In this document: positions 3,609-10,498 of the stretch, one piece after another
Layout: each line of letters begins with the position of its first letter
Position numbering within the stretch: position 1 is the stretch's first letter
Origin: an uncultured Candidatus Saccharibacteria bacterium
GTDB lineage: Bacteria > Patescibacteriota > Minisyncoccia > Phycocordibacterales > JAKFXT01
Assembly (NCBI GenBank): GCA_964385825.1
Contig: CAYLPX010000001.1
Coordinates: forward strand, 84,493-148,492
Direction of reading: 5' to 3'
DNA: 64,000 nucleotides
Position numbers and translations under genes: made by a program
The notes under the pieces: generated by a model
What the model saw: the letters and a program-made list of their open reading frames with translations, nothing else
Told to the model about the DNA's origin: nothing
The model's database searches: none

Positions 3609-3615
3609 AAAAACA

Positions 3616-3637
3616 GAGCGCGCATTGCTGCGCGCTC
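3616..3637. terminator. hairpin between convergent genes (ABC transporter and the 3642..3830 ORF)
   Basis: gagcgcgca-ttgc-tgcgcgctc. Confidence 0.45.
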
Positions 3638-3641
3638 GGGA

Positions 3642-3830
3642 CTAATCCCAGATTGGAGGCATGTTACCAGTGTCCTCTGGCAATCCCTCGGTGCCCGTAG
3701 GTGTTTCGAGGGCATCAAGGCCATTCTGATGTATGAACTTCTTTCCCGACCCATGTTCACTAGGAGGGGTATTGGCTGCAGCTGGCGAGGGACTTCCGTC
3801 TCCAACTGCTGGAAAAAAAAGTTTCTGCAT
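3642..3830 (-). CDS. hypothetical small protein (62 aa), GC-rich island gene C
   Basis: ATG at 3830 has GAGGGG 7 nt upstream. An upstream hairpin gagccgcg..cgcggctc (3852-3872) separates it from gene B. Confidence 0.35.
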   Translation of the reverse strand: MQKLFFPAVGDGSPSPAAANTPPSEHGSGKKFIHQNGLDALETPTGTEGLPEDTGNMPPIWD

Positions 3831-3884
3831 TTTCATTCCCCTCATGAAAGCGAGCCGCGGGTTGCGCGGCTCGGGTGTGCGGGG

Positions 3885-4220
3885 TCAGTCAGCCTCGGCG
3901 GGGGCTAGCCCGTAAAACTCGGCTTCGTGACGGTGTTCTACTGCTGTCAGTTTTCCACCACGCAGCCACGGCTTCAGCACCTGGAACTCAGCCTGTTTCC
4001 TGCTGAGTGCTTCTCCTGCGAGCCGTTTCATTTCGCAGGCCATGGCAGCATTGCCCATCATGCGAATCTCGGCCGAACGTGTTGTTCGCGCCGAACCGCT
4101 CATGCCGACCAGGAATTCATCCAAAAGCTGGCTCATTGCCCGGCGAGTATTGCCGTTGCATTCCGTGACGAGCTCTTTGGCTCGACTCTTCACAATTTCA
4201 TCTTGGTTCTTGCTTTTCAT
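3885..4220 (-). CDS. hypothetical protein (111 aa), GC-rich island gene B
   Basis: ATG at 4220 with GGGAGGAAG SD. Codon usage has high GC3, unlike neighbouring genes. Its own terminator follows. Confidence 0.5.
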   Translation of the reverse strand: MKSKNQDEIVKSRAKELVTECNGNTRRAMSQLLDEFLVGMSGSARTTRSAEIRMMGNAAMACEMKRLAGEALSRKQAEFQVLKPWLRGGKLTAVEHRHEAEFYGLAPAEAD

Positions 4221-4401
4221 GCCACTTCCTCCCAAGGAAAAAACGACGATTGAAAAACATACCAGTAACGCTGAAAATAATTATACTACTAACCCCCCAA
4301 ATGTCAAATACTGCTATGGGGGTAAAAATAGGAGGGAAAATAAAAGGGGCGCGGCCGGATATTCTCGGTCGCGCCCTGGGGTGTCGTTGCATGTTGCCCT
4401 T

Positions 4402-4812
4402 TCAGCGAACCAGTGAAAGCCGGTGTCGCACACTTTTTTCGGAGGGGAGCACCTGGGTGGTTGCGCCCATTTTGAAGTTCTGGTGCACCCACGTTTCGAT
4501 TTCCCACAGGAGTTCCGGCAGGGGCGTGATGGCGCCATTCTCGGAGCGAACCATGGGGAAGTGGATGCTCAGAATCCAGGACCCGTCAGGGCCGCGTACA
4601 AGTTCGCTCGCCGCCTCGTAGGCCCGCAGTTCACGTCGGAACTTTTCGGTATCCCTTCTGTTGGCGTGGCCAGGGAGAGGGATGCGGCAGCCCACACGAG
4701 CCTCCTTTTCGAAGTTGGCGGGGAAGTAGATCTCCGCTTCAGCGCCCGACTTGTGGAGAAGCCCTCGTACTTCCCGTACGAAAGCTCTCCAGACAGACAA
4801 TATGATTTGCAT
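4402..4812 (-). CDS. hypothetical protein (137 aa), GC-rich island gene A
   Basis: ATG at 4812 with GGAGG 5 nt upstream. It is followed on the minus strand by hairpin 4347-4376 plus a T-rich run. Confidence 0.5.
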   Translation of the reverse strand: MQIILSVWRAFVREVRGLLHKSGAEAEIYFPANFEKEARVGCRIPLPGHANRRDTEKFRRELRAYEAASELVRGPDGSWILSIHFPMVRSENGAITPLPELLWEIETWVHQNFKMGATTQVLPSEKSVRHRLSLVR

Positions 4813-4886
4813 ACAAGCCTCCATTAAATGGTGGGTGGGAACAGGTGTTACTGGTTAAAAATAGTACAATAGAAGGGTGTATAAGT

Positions 4887-4919
4887 AAACCCCTCCGGCG
4901 CAAAGCGCCGGAGGGGTTT
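4887..4919 (-). terminator. intrinsic terminator of yqeY (perfect 15-bp stem)
   Basis: aaacccctccggcgc-aaa-gcgccggaggggttt. Confidence 0.6.
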
Positions 4920-4934
4920 ACCAACCTTACTTTT

Positions 4935-5381: not shown

Positions 5382-5470
5382 AGAGGTTTATTTTATTGGG
5401 TTATATAGTACTTATCTTAGCAAAAATGAGGGTAATCGTGAATGCGGAAGGCTCGTGTTAAAATAACGGA

Positions 5471-6562
5471 ATGTCTACAACCACTATTGTTATTATCTTT
5501 GTTGCACTCCTTTTTCTACTCCTTAATGGCTTTGCTTTTTGGGCAGTACTTCGTCGTATGGGTACTAAAGATGAGGGGGAGGGGGATAGTGGCATGAAGC
5601 TCTTACTTGAGCAAATGAATGAGCTTACGCGTCGCCAAGGTGACCTTACGAGCATGATGGATAAGAAGTTGCTTGAAAGCTCCCGCGCCATGACCGAGTC
5701 ACTTCACCGTACCGGTGAAACTACTACGCGTATTATTACTGATATTACCGAGAAACTCACCCGACTCGACGAAACCAATAAACAGGTAGTCTCTTTTGCT
5801 GATCAACTTCAGTCTCTCCAGGATATTTTGAAGAACCCGAAACAGCGAGGAATACTTGGTGAGTATTATCTTGAAACACTACTTAAAAATGTACTGCCTC
5901 CTGGGGGGTATCAAATGCAGTATGGGTTTAGCGATGGAGAGATAGTTGATGCAGTGGTGTTCGTGCAGGATAAGATTATACCTATAGACTCTAAGTTCAG
6001 CTTGGAGAACTACAATCGCTGGGTAGAGGAGAAGAACGAACTTGAGAAAATCCGCTTTGAGAAAGTGTTTGTCAACGACCTCAAACTGCGCATACAAGAA
6101 ACTGCTAAATATATTCGCCCGGGAGAAAAGACCATGGACTTCGCGTTCATGTTTATCCCGCATGAGGCTATTTACTATGATTTACTGGTGAACAAAATCG
6201 GCGGGGTAGATGAGAGTAGTGACAACCTTATTCAAAGAGCGGCTACAAAATATAAAGTAATTATTGTTTCTCCTACTTCGTTCCTCGCGTACCTTCAGAC
6301 GGTGCTTCAGGGACTTAAGGCACTAGCCATAGAGGAGAAGGTGGTTGAGGTCATAAAGCGAGTAGGAGAACTTGGTAAACATATGAAGAGCTATGAAGAG
6401 TATCATGGCAAACTCGGAAATGCGCTTGGAACAGTGGTGAATCACTTTAATGCATCAGGTAAGGAGTTTAAAAAGATAGATAAAGATGTGATGCGTATCA
6501 CCGGCGAGAGTATGGATATAGCGACTATTGCACTTGAGGGGCCTGAAAAAGATGTGGAGTAA
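5471..6562 (+). CDS. rmuC: DNA recombination protein RmuC
   Basis: N-terminal TM segment, a long coiled coil and a C-terminal RmuC nuclease-like domain. Confidence 0.85.
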   Translation: MSTTTIVIIFVALLFLLLNGFAFWAVLRRMGTKDEGEGDSGMKLLLEQMNELTRRQGDLTSMMDKKLLESSRAMTESLHRTGETTTRIITDITEKLTRLDETNKQVVSFADQLQSLQDILKNPKQRGILGEYYLETLLKNVLPPGGYQMQYGFSDGEIVDAVVFVQDKIIPIDSKFSLENYNRWVEEKNELEKIRFEKVFVNDLKLRIQETAKYIRPGEKTMDFAFMFIPHEAIYYDLLVNKIGGVDESSDNLIQRAATKYKVIIVSPTSFLAYLQTVLQGLKALAIEEKVVEVIKRVGELGKHMKSYEEYHGKLGNALGTVVNHFNASGKEFKKIDKDVMRITGESMDIATIALEGPEKDVE

Positions 6563-6780
6563 ATAAAAAAAGCCGCCCTTCGCAGGACGGCTCAATGCAG
6601 GGGATCTTCCTGCTTTGATGCAACGCGTACAACATGCCCTCCCGAGCATGTTGGCATACTACAGTATTTAACAGTAAATAAAAGGAGGCAGGCTCGGGGG
6701 AGCCCACCTCAAGGGGAAGGGTAGATGAAGACCCTTACGTCAGAAGAGGAGTCAACTGACGCTCTTTAATAGTACTATAA
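6563..6780 (-). ncRNA. candidate structured RNA (about 220 nt) ending at a minus-oriented terminator
   Basis: The 530-bp gap has no ORF and is moderately GC-rich, with five or more stable hairpins. Hairpin 6571-6592 is followed by a U7 run only on the minus strand. Confidence 0.2.
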
Positions 6781-6784
6781 AATT

Positions 6785-6868
6785 AAAAAAAGAGGGCGGC
6801 CGTGTGAAGGTCGCCCAAATCCATCCTTGCGGATGGTGGAGGAGACTGGGTGTTCCAGTTAGGTAGCA
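6785..6868 (-). ncRNA. candidate small RNA (about 85 nt)
   Basis: Extended -10 TGtTATAGT lies on the minus strand (plus 6875-6883). Hairpin CCATCC-gcaa-GGATGG is followed by terminator GGGCGACC..GGCCGCCC plus a U7 run on the minus strand (plus 6785-6816). The RNA contains CUCCUCC. Confidence 0.25.
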
Positions 6869-7055
6869 CAGTCCCATAGCTAGGACTATAACATATATAG
6901 CTCGTGCAAAATTATCTCAAAATAAATAATTAAAAAAGTAAAGGCCTGTGTGTCACTAAATGGCAGAGAATTGGCTTAAAGGGAAGTCTCCCCCTAGTCT
7001 GGAGTATTTGGGGGCTAGGCTTAAATTTGATTGAATATTGCCCCCTGGGGGATAC

Positions 7056-7083
7056 TTGCAAACCGGCTAGTTTTGTGTAGAAT
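7056..7083 (+). promoter_or_regulatory. sigma70-like promoter of rplU (TTGCAA-16-TAGAAT)
   Basis: The -35 and -10 hexamers are read directly. The predicted start lies only a few nt before the rplU ATG. Confidence 0.4.
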
Positions 7084-7092
7084 ACGTGAATT

Positions 7093-7449
7093 ATGGCTAC
7101 AAAGAAAGCTACAACTAAGAAGGCCTCATCCGACGAATTCGCCGTTATTTTTACTGGTGGAAAGCAGTACAAAGTCTCTGTGGGCGAGAAGATTGATATT
7201 GAAATTATGAAAGGGGACTTCAAGGAGGGGGATAAGGTCGTTTTTGATAAGATTCTCATGGTGGATGATGGCAAGGATACAACAATTGGTGCTCCATATA
7301 TAAAGGAAGCTAAGGTTGAGGGTAAAATCACTAAGATTGCTAAGCATGATAAGGTTATGGTAACGAAGTACAAGGCCAAGAGCCGCTACCTTAAAACCAA
7401 CGGGCACCGCCAGCCATTTTTTGAAGTAGAAATCACTACTCTAAAATAA
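7093..7449 (+). CDS. rplU: 50S ribosomal protein L21
   Basis: AVIxTGGKQYKV motif and full-length L21 similarity. Confidence 0.9.
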   Translation: MATKKATTKKASSDEFAVIFTGGKQYKVSVGEKIDIEIMKGDFKEGDKVVFDKILMVDDGKDTTIGAPYIKEAKVEGKITKIAKHDKVMVTKYKAKSRYLKTNGHRQPFFEVEITTLK

Positions 7450-7454
7450 GAAAT

Positions 7455-7484
7455 AAAAAAAGCGCGCCGCGAGGCGCGCTTTTG
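7455..7484. terminator. bidirectional terminator after rplU
   Basis: aaaaaagcgcgcc-gcga-ggcgcgctttt. Confidence 0.6.
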
Positions 7485-7508: not shown

Positions 7509-7874
7509 CTAGCCTCTCCTGCGCAGGTGATGAGTCAGTGCCATGACACTGAAAACAAGGGTTGATATGTGGAAGGTGCAGTAGGCAATACTCCCGGCCA
7601 GCAGCCACACAACCATGTGGCTAAGAAGTTGCACTACAATGTCCGGATGCTCCATCCCCACATTCTTGATTGAAAGAATACCAATCAGGAACAATAGTGC
7701 ACAGTACACAAGGACAACCCTTTCCCCAGCCGTTTTCGCAGTTATCTCCTTTTCCGGGGCTAAATGTACAACCAGGATGGTGAGCCCCCAGAGGAGAAGC
7801 CCGAGATGGACCCCTCCTGTGGTGGCAATGATGACGAAGGTCTGGATTGACCAAGCAAATTCAAGCTCACTCAT
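7509..7874 (-). CDS. hypothetical polytopic membrane protein
   Basis: ATG at 7874 with AAGGAAGG SD. About 4 TM segments. It is translationally coupled to the upstream gene with a 1-nt gap. Confidence 0.5.
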   Translation of the reverse strand: MSELEFAWSIQTFVIIATTGGVHLGLLLWGLTILVVHLAPEKEITAKTAGERVVLVYCALLFLIGILSIKNVGMEHPDIVVQLLSHMVVWLLAGSIAYCTFHISTLVFSVMALTHHLRRRG

Positions 7875-7875
7875 C

Positions 7876-8223
7876 TCACACCTTCCTTTTTCGTACGAGG
7901 AGCAGAACAATGACAGCACTCCCGATTACGAGATATGCTCCTAAGCTGACAATGAGGCCATCTAAAAGAGCGTTCCCGATCATTTCCCCGCTCGGAGGAC
8001 CCACACCCTCATGGTGCGTGAGGCGGGTATAGGAATGAGTGAAGAAGACCCCGACGCTGAAGACGCCGGCGATGAGTAGCTGGAATTTCCCCCGCGTAAG
8101 TTTCAAAAAAGTCCTTACCTCCGACAGAATTGCGTCGATCCCGAAGGTAAAGGGCATTCCCATCACAGCAAGGGCCACAATCACTTTCCCGTGACCCGCA
8201 AGTACTTCCAAGATTTCAGGCAT
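7876..8223 (-). CDS. small membrane protein, possibly Mrp/Mnh antiporter subunit G-like (weak)
   Basis: ATG at 8223 with GAGGAG SD. Two or three TM segments. The motif YTRLTHHEGVGPPSG resembles the MnhG YxRxHAAGKxxTLG region. Confidence 0.35.
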   Translation of the reverse strand: MPEILEVLAGHGKVIVALAVMGMPFTFGIDAILSEVRTFLKLTRGKFQLLIAGVFSVGVFFTHSYTRLTHHEGVGPPSGEMIGNALLDGLIVSLGAYLVIGSAVIVLLLVRKRKV

Positions 8224-10402: not shown

Positions 10403-10498
10403 TAGTAAGATTCTACCACGAGCAGAATTAGAGAAGGGAAGGGAAAAAGGGTCTAAACAGGGGAAAGACTGTGCATAATCCGGTTGAATGACAAGGCT

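Follow-up and report, generated by a model that had tools for sequence, protein, structure and literature searches.

Known small RNAs (sRNAs) with unpaired CU-rich stretches act via base pairing (PMC5688073). In the double-hairpin sRNAs of Burkholderia (ncS03, ncS05, ncS27 and ncS62), considered here together with the Rfam family RF02278, such stretches are complementary to ribosome-binding sites (PMC5688073). Two other systems, the NmsRs of Neisseria (PMC5688073) and the alphaproteobacterial cuckoo/CcsR family, consist of small RNA genes arranged head to tail, each with a terminator, and carry C/U-rich motifs resembling an anti-Shine-Dalgarno (anti-SD) sequence in hairpin loops or unpaired stretches; the cuckoo/CcsR family has CCUCCUCCC loops (PMC4615179, PMC8034643). 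A structured non-coding region next to the ribosomal protein gene rplU is also known in Firmicutes, where the L21 leader (RF00559) lies upstream of this gene. Our literature search found no account of regulatory RNAs in Patescibacteria/CPR bacteria. To our knowledge, known regulators are scarce in these organisms, which have tiny genomes.

The locus described here is the spacer between rmuC and rplU in a 64-kb stretch of DNA from a CPR bacterium (hereafter the window, meaning the whole stretch that was analysed). With the rmuC stop at 6562 and the rplU ATG at 7093, this spacer measures 530 bp (6563-7092) and is the longest non-coding gap of the window; an initial annotation had given the correct length and had called the spacer long for a compact genome. 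It most likely contains three tandem genes for small non-coding RNAs, placed back to back on the minus strand. The three units (u1, u2 and u3) span 6565-6893, the rmuC-proximal 330 bp, and are convergent with rmuC and divergent from rplU. Each has a -10-like box, two to three hairpins and a terminator made up of a hairpin and a U-run; all three minus-strand terminators fall within 330 nt, each 85-95 nt downstream of a -10-like box. The units are not paralogous repeats of one another. On the plus strand, no rmuC terminator is present.

The closest relatives of the RmuC protein are found in Patescibacteria/Paceibacteria MAGs that are Taylorbacteria- and Zambryskibacteria-like, with identities of 100% (one ENA cluster) and 69-76% (the next species). 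Close relatives keep the gene order yqeY - rmuC - rplU - hypothetical - recR - dnaB, and the L21 proteins at the syntenic loci of relatives contain PF00829. Overall, rmuC adjoins rplU in approximately 50 of 80 GTDB loci, and in most genomes with this adjacency (Paceibacteria, GTDB loci) the spacer is shorter than 150 bp. Among Paceibacteria (L001-L101), the region downstream of rmuC is a variable hot spot that ranges from 7 bp to more than 1 kb. Its contents include nothing at all, small or Cys-rich ORFs (L004, L016, L023), larger inserted ORFs (L045, L057, L073) and structured non-coding sequence.

The features of the locus are collected in Table 1. The minus-strand terminators of u1 and u3, each with seven U residues, were already placed correctly in the initial annotation, as were the CUCCUCC motif and the CCATCC/GGATGG hairpin of u1. 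The extended -10 box had been put at 6875-6883, which is wrong by ten bases; because TGTTATAGT lies further upstream, the first RNA is approximately 94 nt in length instead of approximately 85 nt. What had been taken for one structured region of about 220 nt is divided into u2 and u3 by an overlooked terminator followed by CUUUUAUUU. The spacer had also been called ORF-free. Minus-strand ORFs of 41-64 aa do exist in it, and these are mechanical ORFs without conservation.

Table 1. Coordinates of features in and beside the rmuC-rplU spacer (window positions)
Feature	Position	Strand	Basis or description
rmuC	5471-6562	+	RmuC with PF02646
u3 RNA, ~88 nt	6565-6652 (~6652 to 6565)	-	fold, terminator scan, comparison
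u3 terminator	6592-6571	-	terminator scan; GCGA loop, followed by U7
u3 HP2	6617-6593	-	
u3 linker	6630-6618	-	GUACGCGUUGCAU; 13 nt, single-stranded, between two hairpins, conserved
u3 HP1	6652-6631	-	GGGA tetraloop
u3 putative -10, TGTAGTAT	6656-6663	-	weak box
u2 RNA, ~90 nt	6676-6767 (~6767 to 6676)	-	fold, terminator scan, comparison
u2 terminator	6710-6685	-	terminator scan; followed by CUUUUAUUU
u2 HP2	6736-6717	-	
u2 HP1	6762-6737	-	12-nt loop UUGACUCCUCUU
u2 CUCCUC	6751-6746	-	in the loop of HP1
u2 putative -10, TATAGT	6774-6779	-	weak consensus match; overlaps TAGTAC
u1 RNA, ~94 nt	6785-6878 (~6878 to 6785)	-	fold, terminator, -10 box
u1 terminator U7	6791-6785	-	
u1 terminator stem	6816-6794	-	
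u1 GCAA-capped hairpin	6836-6821	-	CCATCC/GGATGG
u1 CUCCUCC	6844-6838	-	exposed between 5' stem and GCAA hairpin
u1 5' stem		-	GGGACUG/CAGUCUC
u1 putative promoter, extended -10 TGTTATAGT	6885-6893	-	sequence
Stretch between the u1 and rplU promoters	6894-7055		AT-rich, with hairpin; no significant fold
rplU promoter, TTGCAA-N16-TAGAAT	7056-7083	+	promoter scan; ends 9 nt before the rplU ATG

An sRNA gene is generally expected to have its own promoter and terminator. The terminators of the three units are clear and the -10 boxes are putative; that of u1 fits the promoter type of this genome, TGnTAnnnT, which is found in the window just upstream of gene starts. At the u2 box, L087 (a contig of the sister lineage described below) has TGTAGT/TAGTAT, and the position relative to HP1 is conserved between the lineages. 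At the u3 box the same contig has TATTAT, at an equal distance from HP1. Fold stability, a check proposed with the initial annotation, also favours structured units (z = -2.8 to -6.2 against dinucleotide shuffles). Specifically, the minus-strand fold is -27.5 to -31.5 kcal/mol for u1 (z = -2.8 and -3.9), with an MFE of -37.7 kcal/mol for u2 (z = -5.9 and -6.2) and of -38.7 to -45 kcal/mol for u3 (z = -3.4 and -5.1). For u2 and u3 the minus-strand fold is stabler than the plus-strand fold, while for u1 the plus-strand fold is slightly stabler (-33.5 vs. -27.5 kcal/mol).

An assembly artefact is excluded by three contigs from other samples (L084-086) whose spacer is identical to that of the window. 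A sister lineage, represented by seven contigs, has an RmuC that is 94% identical at the amino acid level and a 600-bp spacer with the same layout; sequences for the units were taken from L087-090 and L092-095. Between the window and this lineage, four-fold degenerate sites (rmuC, rplU, yqeY and recR) are 39-51% identical, which is near saturation. In comparison with L087, u2 is 76% identical and u3, the best conserved unit, 85%. Together, u2 and u3 have 21 substitutions in paired columns and no broken pair: four are secure double compensatory changes and nine are G·U-compatible. For u2 (21 pairs, window vs. L087), there are 10 such substitutions, with a secure double change (UA>CG) in HP1, and two further double changes rest on a hand alignment of HP2. 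For u3 (26 pairs, 100% paired across three distinct sequences), seven pairs vary on one side only, and the 11 substitutions include three double compensatory changes (GC>AU, CG>GC and AU>GC) and five wobble-compatible ones. When equal numbers of substitutions were placed at random, 6-7 pairs were broken on average, and zero broken pairs occurred in approximately 1 of 20,000 trials for each of these units. A pair-count tool gave 100% of cells paired for u3 vs. 41-50% for slid partners; the shuffle control of this count is weak, as it draws on three distinct sequences from two deep lineages, and 23 of 500 shuffles reach the observed values.

The G·U pairs of u2 and u3 fit the minus strand only and become A·C mismatches on the plus strand. 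Single-stranded segments are conserved as well: the HP1 loop of u2, UUG(A/U)CUCCUCUU, is constant but for one base between the lineages, and the u3 linker is constant across lineages as (G/C)UACGCGUUGC(A/G)U. Unit u3 is without a CU motif. Within the reach of sequence comparison, these data demonstrate purifying selection on u2 and u3 for RNA base pairing on the minus strand, and the two are very probably functional structured RNAs. The proposal of one or more minus-strand sRNAs in the initial annotation is thereby supported: u2 and u3 are conserved above the neutral level, they change in the sister lineage with pairing preserved and in a strand-specific manner, and Rfam assigns nothing to them at threshold. 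Conservation above neutral with structure-preserving change and no conserved ORF, a feature expected of an sRNA gene, is found for u2 and u3 and not for u1.

Unit u1, the CUCCUCC-containing RNA of the initial annotation, shows no sequence conservation beyond its own species. Its identity with the sister lineage is 56% with gaps, and the two cannot be aligned. An analogous RNA occupies the same place: at the position of u1, the sister lineage has an unalignable RNA (u1') behind the same TGTTAT(G/A)GT box (TGTTATGGT or TGTTATAGT), and u1' keeps UUCCCUCCUCA, a GC-rich hairpin and a terminator. Judged by this comparison, u1 is a fast-evolving unit that has been replaced in the sister lineage, and it is plausible, with the balance slightly in favour, that it is a lineage-specific sRNA. 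Within the sister lineage itself, the first hairpin of u1' has been rewritten from CGCCCCCCAUGGGGCG to GCCCGAAUUGGGC (L087 4395-4415 vs. L092 and L095). This is a small hypervariable stem-loop that remains a hairpin, in contigs that are otherwise near-identical.

Beyond the sister lineage, more distant members of the sub-clade (L091, L081, L083 and L100, with RmuC 74-87% identical) have spacers of 350-430 bp that cannot be aligned; their minus strands have CUCCUC or CCUCC in hairpin loops or linkers ahead of terminators. The spacers of L012, L040, L051 and L068 can be aligned neither to the window nor to each other. A blastn comparison with 80 GTDB rmuC loci revealed nothing similar to the units. 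Covariance models R1 and R2 scored strongly on their own training sequences only, and neither the window nor 87 related loci yielded another confident copy. Weak R2 matches (21-25 bits: L087 u1', the CU-loop RNA of L100 and some terminators) were not accepted as proof of homology. The scores of L087 u1' and the L100 RNA are marginal (21-23 bits); these RNAs clearly share their architecture, and possibly their descent, with the units of the window. A metagenome scan with the u3 linker pattern returned one match, on a high-GC contig inside an ORF that we recognised by eye from the DNA and take to be that of ribosomal protein L28 (rpmB), and we attribute it to chance. Scans of viral contigs with the u1, u2 and u3 patterns returned 0, 2 and 1 matches, respectively; the sole one that also fits model R2 lies antisense inside a phage ORF and is likewise ascribed to chance. 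The units are narrowly distributed and belong to no described family.

A search of the window and 16 related loci with Rfam at the gathering threshold returned tRNAs only. No housekeeping RNA was assigned to the spacer, and there was no match to RNase P, tmRNA or SRP RNA, in agreement with the initial annotation; with ARAGORN, too, the spacer was devoid of tmRNA and tRNA genes. Elsewhere in the window, the 3' 19 nt of a tRNA-Glu gene (GATTCTCCGTAGGGTCGCC, 1129-1147) are repeated 142 nt downstream (1271-1289), with an encoded A completing GCCA after the second copy only. This repeat looks like an att-type duplication or an insertion remnant at a tRNA. A further stretch, 3609-4934, has a high G+C content, many hairpins and ORFs that overlap in many frames, and Rfam gave no match to it; in relatives it holds two called genes without a Pfam match on record (111 and 136 aa in L084).

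In the remainder of the spacer, a fourth unit at 6894-7055 was considered and rejected, since neither strand of 6925-7050 folded significantly (z = 0.15 and 0.63). The stretch cannot be aligned to L087 and is possibly a decayed fourth unit. At the corresponding place on its minus strand, L087 (4519-4661) has a fourth unit whose loop contains CCCCCUCCC and whose terminator is strong, and the difference from the unstructured stretch of the window suggests that units are gained and lost. The rplU promoter is conserved in all close relatives. From its distance to the ATG it follows that the rplU mRNA is leaderless or near-leaderless, and a long plus-strand rplU leader is excluded. Just after rplU comes an 11-bp GC-rich palindromic hairpin (7458-7483) with an A-run on one side and a T-run on the other, which resembles a bidirectional terminator common to rplU and the convergent gene at 7509-7919.

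CU-rich motifs are concentrated on the minus strand of these spacers. In eight lineages, CTCCTC or CCTCC was observed 24 times where 6.9 occurrences were expected (0 of 500 shuffles reach 24), vs. 3 observed and 2.8 expected on the plus strand. With a stricter descriptor, which requires a hairpin with the CU motif in its loop together with a terminator, 10 sites were found in 750 kb, five of them on the minus strand of the rmuC-rplU spacer. The window itself makes little use of SD sequences. An SD-like tetramer (GGAG, GAGG or AGGA) is present at -22 to -4 of 5/66 ORF starts, which leaves CU-rich seeds largely without their classic target. Of 42 ATG-start ORFs, 21 have a TAnnnT box whose end lies 5-10 nt before the ATG, compared with 12.8% of all ATGs, and the box is often preceded by TG. 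Examples of such start regions are 5456-5470 (rmuC), 7075-7092 (rplU) and 10403-10418 (dnaB). Judging from these start regions, the genome seems to depend in the main on mRNAs that have neither a leader nor an SD site, which makes generic SD masking by CU-rich motifs unlikely. The initial annotation had called CUCCUCC anti-SD-like; the motif is there, and a functional anti-SD reading is weakened in a genome that hardly uses SD sequences.

Predicted duplexes were not enriched at the 68 start regions of the window, where the mean was weaker than the coding background. The best predicted target site, at about +15 to +27 of a gene that we read as murG from its N-terminus (MKILFAGGVTGGH), did not rise above background and was dropped. 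A role of the u3 GGGAGG as a sponge pairing with u1 or u2 was rejected, as inter-unit duplex energies equal those of shuffles; GGGAGG is, in addition, mostly inside the HP1 stem with its GGGA tetraloop. In the rmuC-rplU spacer of a Zambryskibacteria MAG (L012, 4415-4433, minus strand) we observed GGCUGGAUCACCUCCUUUU, and in L051 (5258-5271, minus strand) GAUCACCUCCCUUA. The former looks like the usual bacterial 16S 3' end. Both stretches could be an rRNA fragment or an anti-SD mimic.

We consider it fairly probable that the locus encodes three tandem minus-strand sRNAs that are separately promoted, have Rho-independent terminators and act by base pairing in trans. Under this reading each unit would be transcribed from its own promoter and end in a Rho-independent terminator, and the RNAs would be riboregulators whose seeds are the CU-rich segments of u1 and u2 and the conserved linker of u3. 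For the CU-rich seeds, the partners may be GGAGG-like stretches near the 5' end of the coding part of leaderless mRNAs, or else a small number of special mRNAs; the seeds would not be general SD blockers, because there are almost no SD sequences and many leaderless genes. By analogy with known sRNAs, regulation in trans through the exposed CU-rich and linker segments can be proposed tentatively, at somewhat less than even confidence. The main alternative to it is that the anti-SD look-alike motif serves as a decoy or mimic: the RNAs would be real and would imitate the 3' tail of 16S rRNA (CCUCC), titrating a protein or RNA that recognises this tail or SD-like sequences, and they would not be antisense regulators of the classic kind. 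Such a role would suit a genome that is poor in SD sequences and rich in leaderless genes. Anti-SD-like CU motifs recur at the locus even without sequence conservation, the distant relatives L012 and L051 have the stretches described above on the minus strand of the same spacer, and u2 and several relatives end in ...CCUCC(U)n. However, u3 is the best conserved unit and has no CU motif, the 3' CCUCC of u2 is paired within its terminator stem, and the L012 case may be an rRNA fragment and is not homologous to the units of the window; we regard the decoy role as rather unlikely. We give little credence to a further idea, in which the spacer is a fast-evolving sRNA "nursery" by rplU whose look-alikes of the 16S anti-SD tail are decoys or specificity switches for the translation start machinery. 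These RNAs might sequester the small number of SD-like sites that exist, or a factor with affinity for the 16S 3' tail, and if so they would control translation in a way that has not been described for CPR bacteria.

It is also improbable that the hairpins are cis-acting punctuation without a functional RNA, either terminators or insulators stacked so as to protect rmuC from antisense transcripts that start near the divergent rplU promoter, or the leftovers of insertions. The spacer is a variable hot spot where relatives have nothing, small ORFs or unrelated sequence, u1 and 6894-7055 turn over quickly, and the plus strand is without an rmuC terminator, all of which would fit punctuation. The conserved HP1 and HP2, the 12-nt CU loop of u2, the 13-nt linker of u3 and the -10 box before each unit would nevertheless go unexplained, and insertion debris would drift to the neutral 39-51% identity, in contrast to the 76-85% observed. 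Leaderless mRNAs for small proteins, a 41-aa ORF in u1 (6877-6752) and a 64-aa ORF in u3 (6649-6455), are a very unlikely explanation. The distance from -10 to ATG, 7 nt in u1 and 6 nt in u3, is as in 21 of the 42 ATG-start genes of the window, and in u3 of L087 a similar frame is open through ...TRC[IV]KAGRSPA. Both ORFs, however, cross the terminator hairpin and U-run and have their stop codons beyond the U-runs, so the terminated transcripts would lack a stop codon; a conserved ORF with start and stop inside the transcript, as a leaderless small-protein gene should have, was not found. In L087 the u3 ATG is replaced by ATA and u1' has no ATG, the frame after HP2 differs from that of the window by a 1-nt indel while the hairpins persist, and a 1-nt deletion in L094 (vs. 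L087) gives a premature TAA with the hairpin kept. Furthermore, the two "synonymous" changes in the only shared ORF together make up a single compensatory base pair. Least credible of all, in our view, is a plus-strand element, either an rplU leader or riboswitch of the L21-leader kind or an element of the rmuC 3' UTR. The position upstream of a ribosomal protein gene and the slightly stabler plus-strand fold of u1 would agree with it. Against this, the conserved rplU promoter of all relatives leaves the spacer outside the rplU mRNA, it is only on the minus strand that the hairpins are followed by U-runs, the wobble pairs likewise fit that strand alone, and there is no Rfam L21_leader match even at E ≤ 10.

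If the three tandem units are expressed as sRNAs, then such reduced cells would be shown to retain riboregulators and to reinvent them rapidly at one fixed place in the genome, and u2 and u3 would provide two covariance models for surveying Paceibacteria MAGs. Anti-SD-like motifs in a seemingly SD-less genome also raise the question of what CU-rich seeds recognise under leaderless translation. If the units are mere punctuation, the finding is an ordinary one.

Among described systems, the L21 leader shares with this locus a structured non-coding region adjoining rplU, but the units are on the opposite strand, outside the rplU transcript, and have no Rfam match to it. The NmsRs and the cuckoo/CcsR family are closer in organisation, as they too are head-to-tail small RNA genes with individual terminators and with C/U-rich motifs in loops or unpaired stretches. 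They differ in that there is no similarity by sequence or covariance model and nothing in Rfam at E ≤ 10, that the units here are not paralogous repeats, and that the host is an SD-poor CPR bacterium. In Alphaproteobacteria, the cuckoo/CcsR family is accompanied by a DUF1127 gene. The neighbours here are rmuC and rplU, and a loop-borne CUCCUC is found in u2 only.

The nearest likeness is that of u1 to RF02278 (Betaproteobacteria toxic sRNA), which apart from terminator-driven noise (Phe_leader, TarB) was the only match to the spacer in Rfam at E ≤ 10. The score of 37.0 bits (6787-6847) is below the cut-off of 50, with E-values of 1e-5 on a 751-nt stretch and 8.8e-4 on the whole window; it was the single match to this family in the 64 kb, and there was none at E ≤ 5 in eight related loci. 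RBS-dependent toxicity is reported for RNAs of this family. Unit u1 aligns over the whole 64-nt model and has the family's order of parts within a short RNA: GUCUCCUCCA unpaired on the 5' side, next a hairpin that closes with UGGAUU, and last a terminator. On the other hand, the second, loop-borne CUCCUC of the family is absent from u1, where the loop is GCAA, and occurs here in another RNA, u2. Unit u1 has an extra 5' stem, and its host is an SD-poor CPR bacterium and not a betaproteobacterium. The dispersed homologous copies that the family has in each genome were not found in the 64 kb of this genome that were searched. Based on these comparisons, the resemblance between u1 and RF02278 is most likely due to convergence, a functional analogy and not membership of the family.
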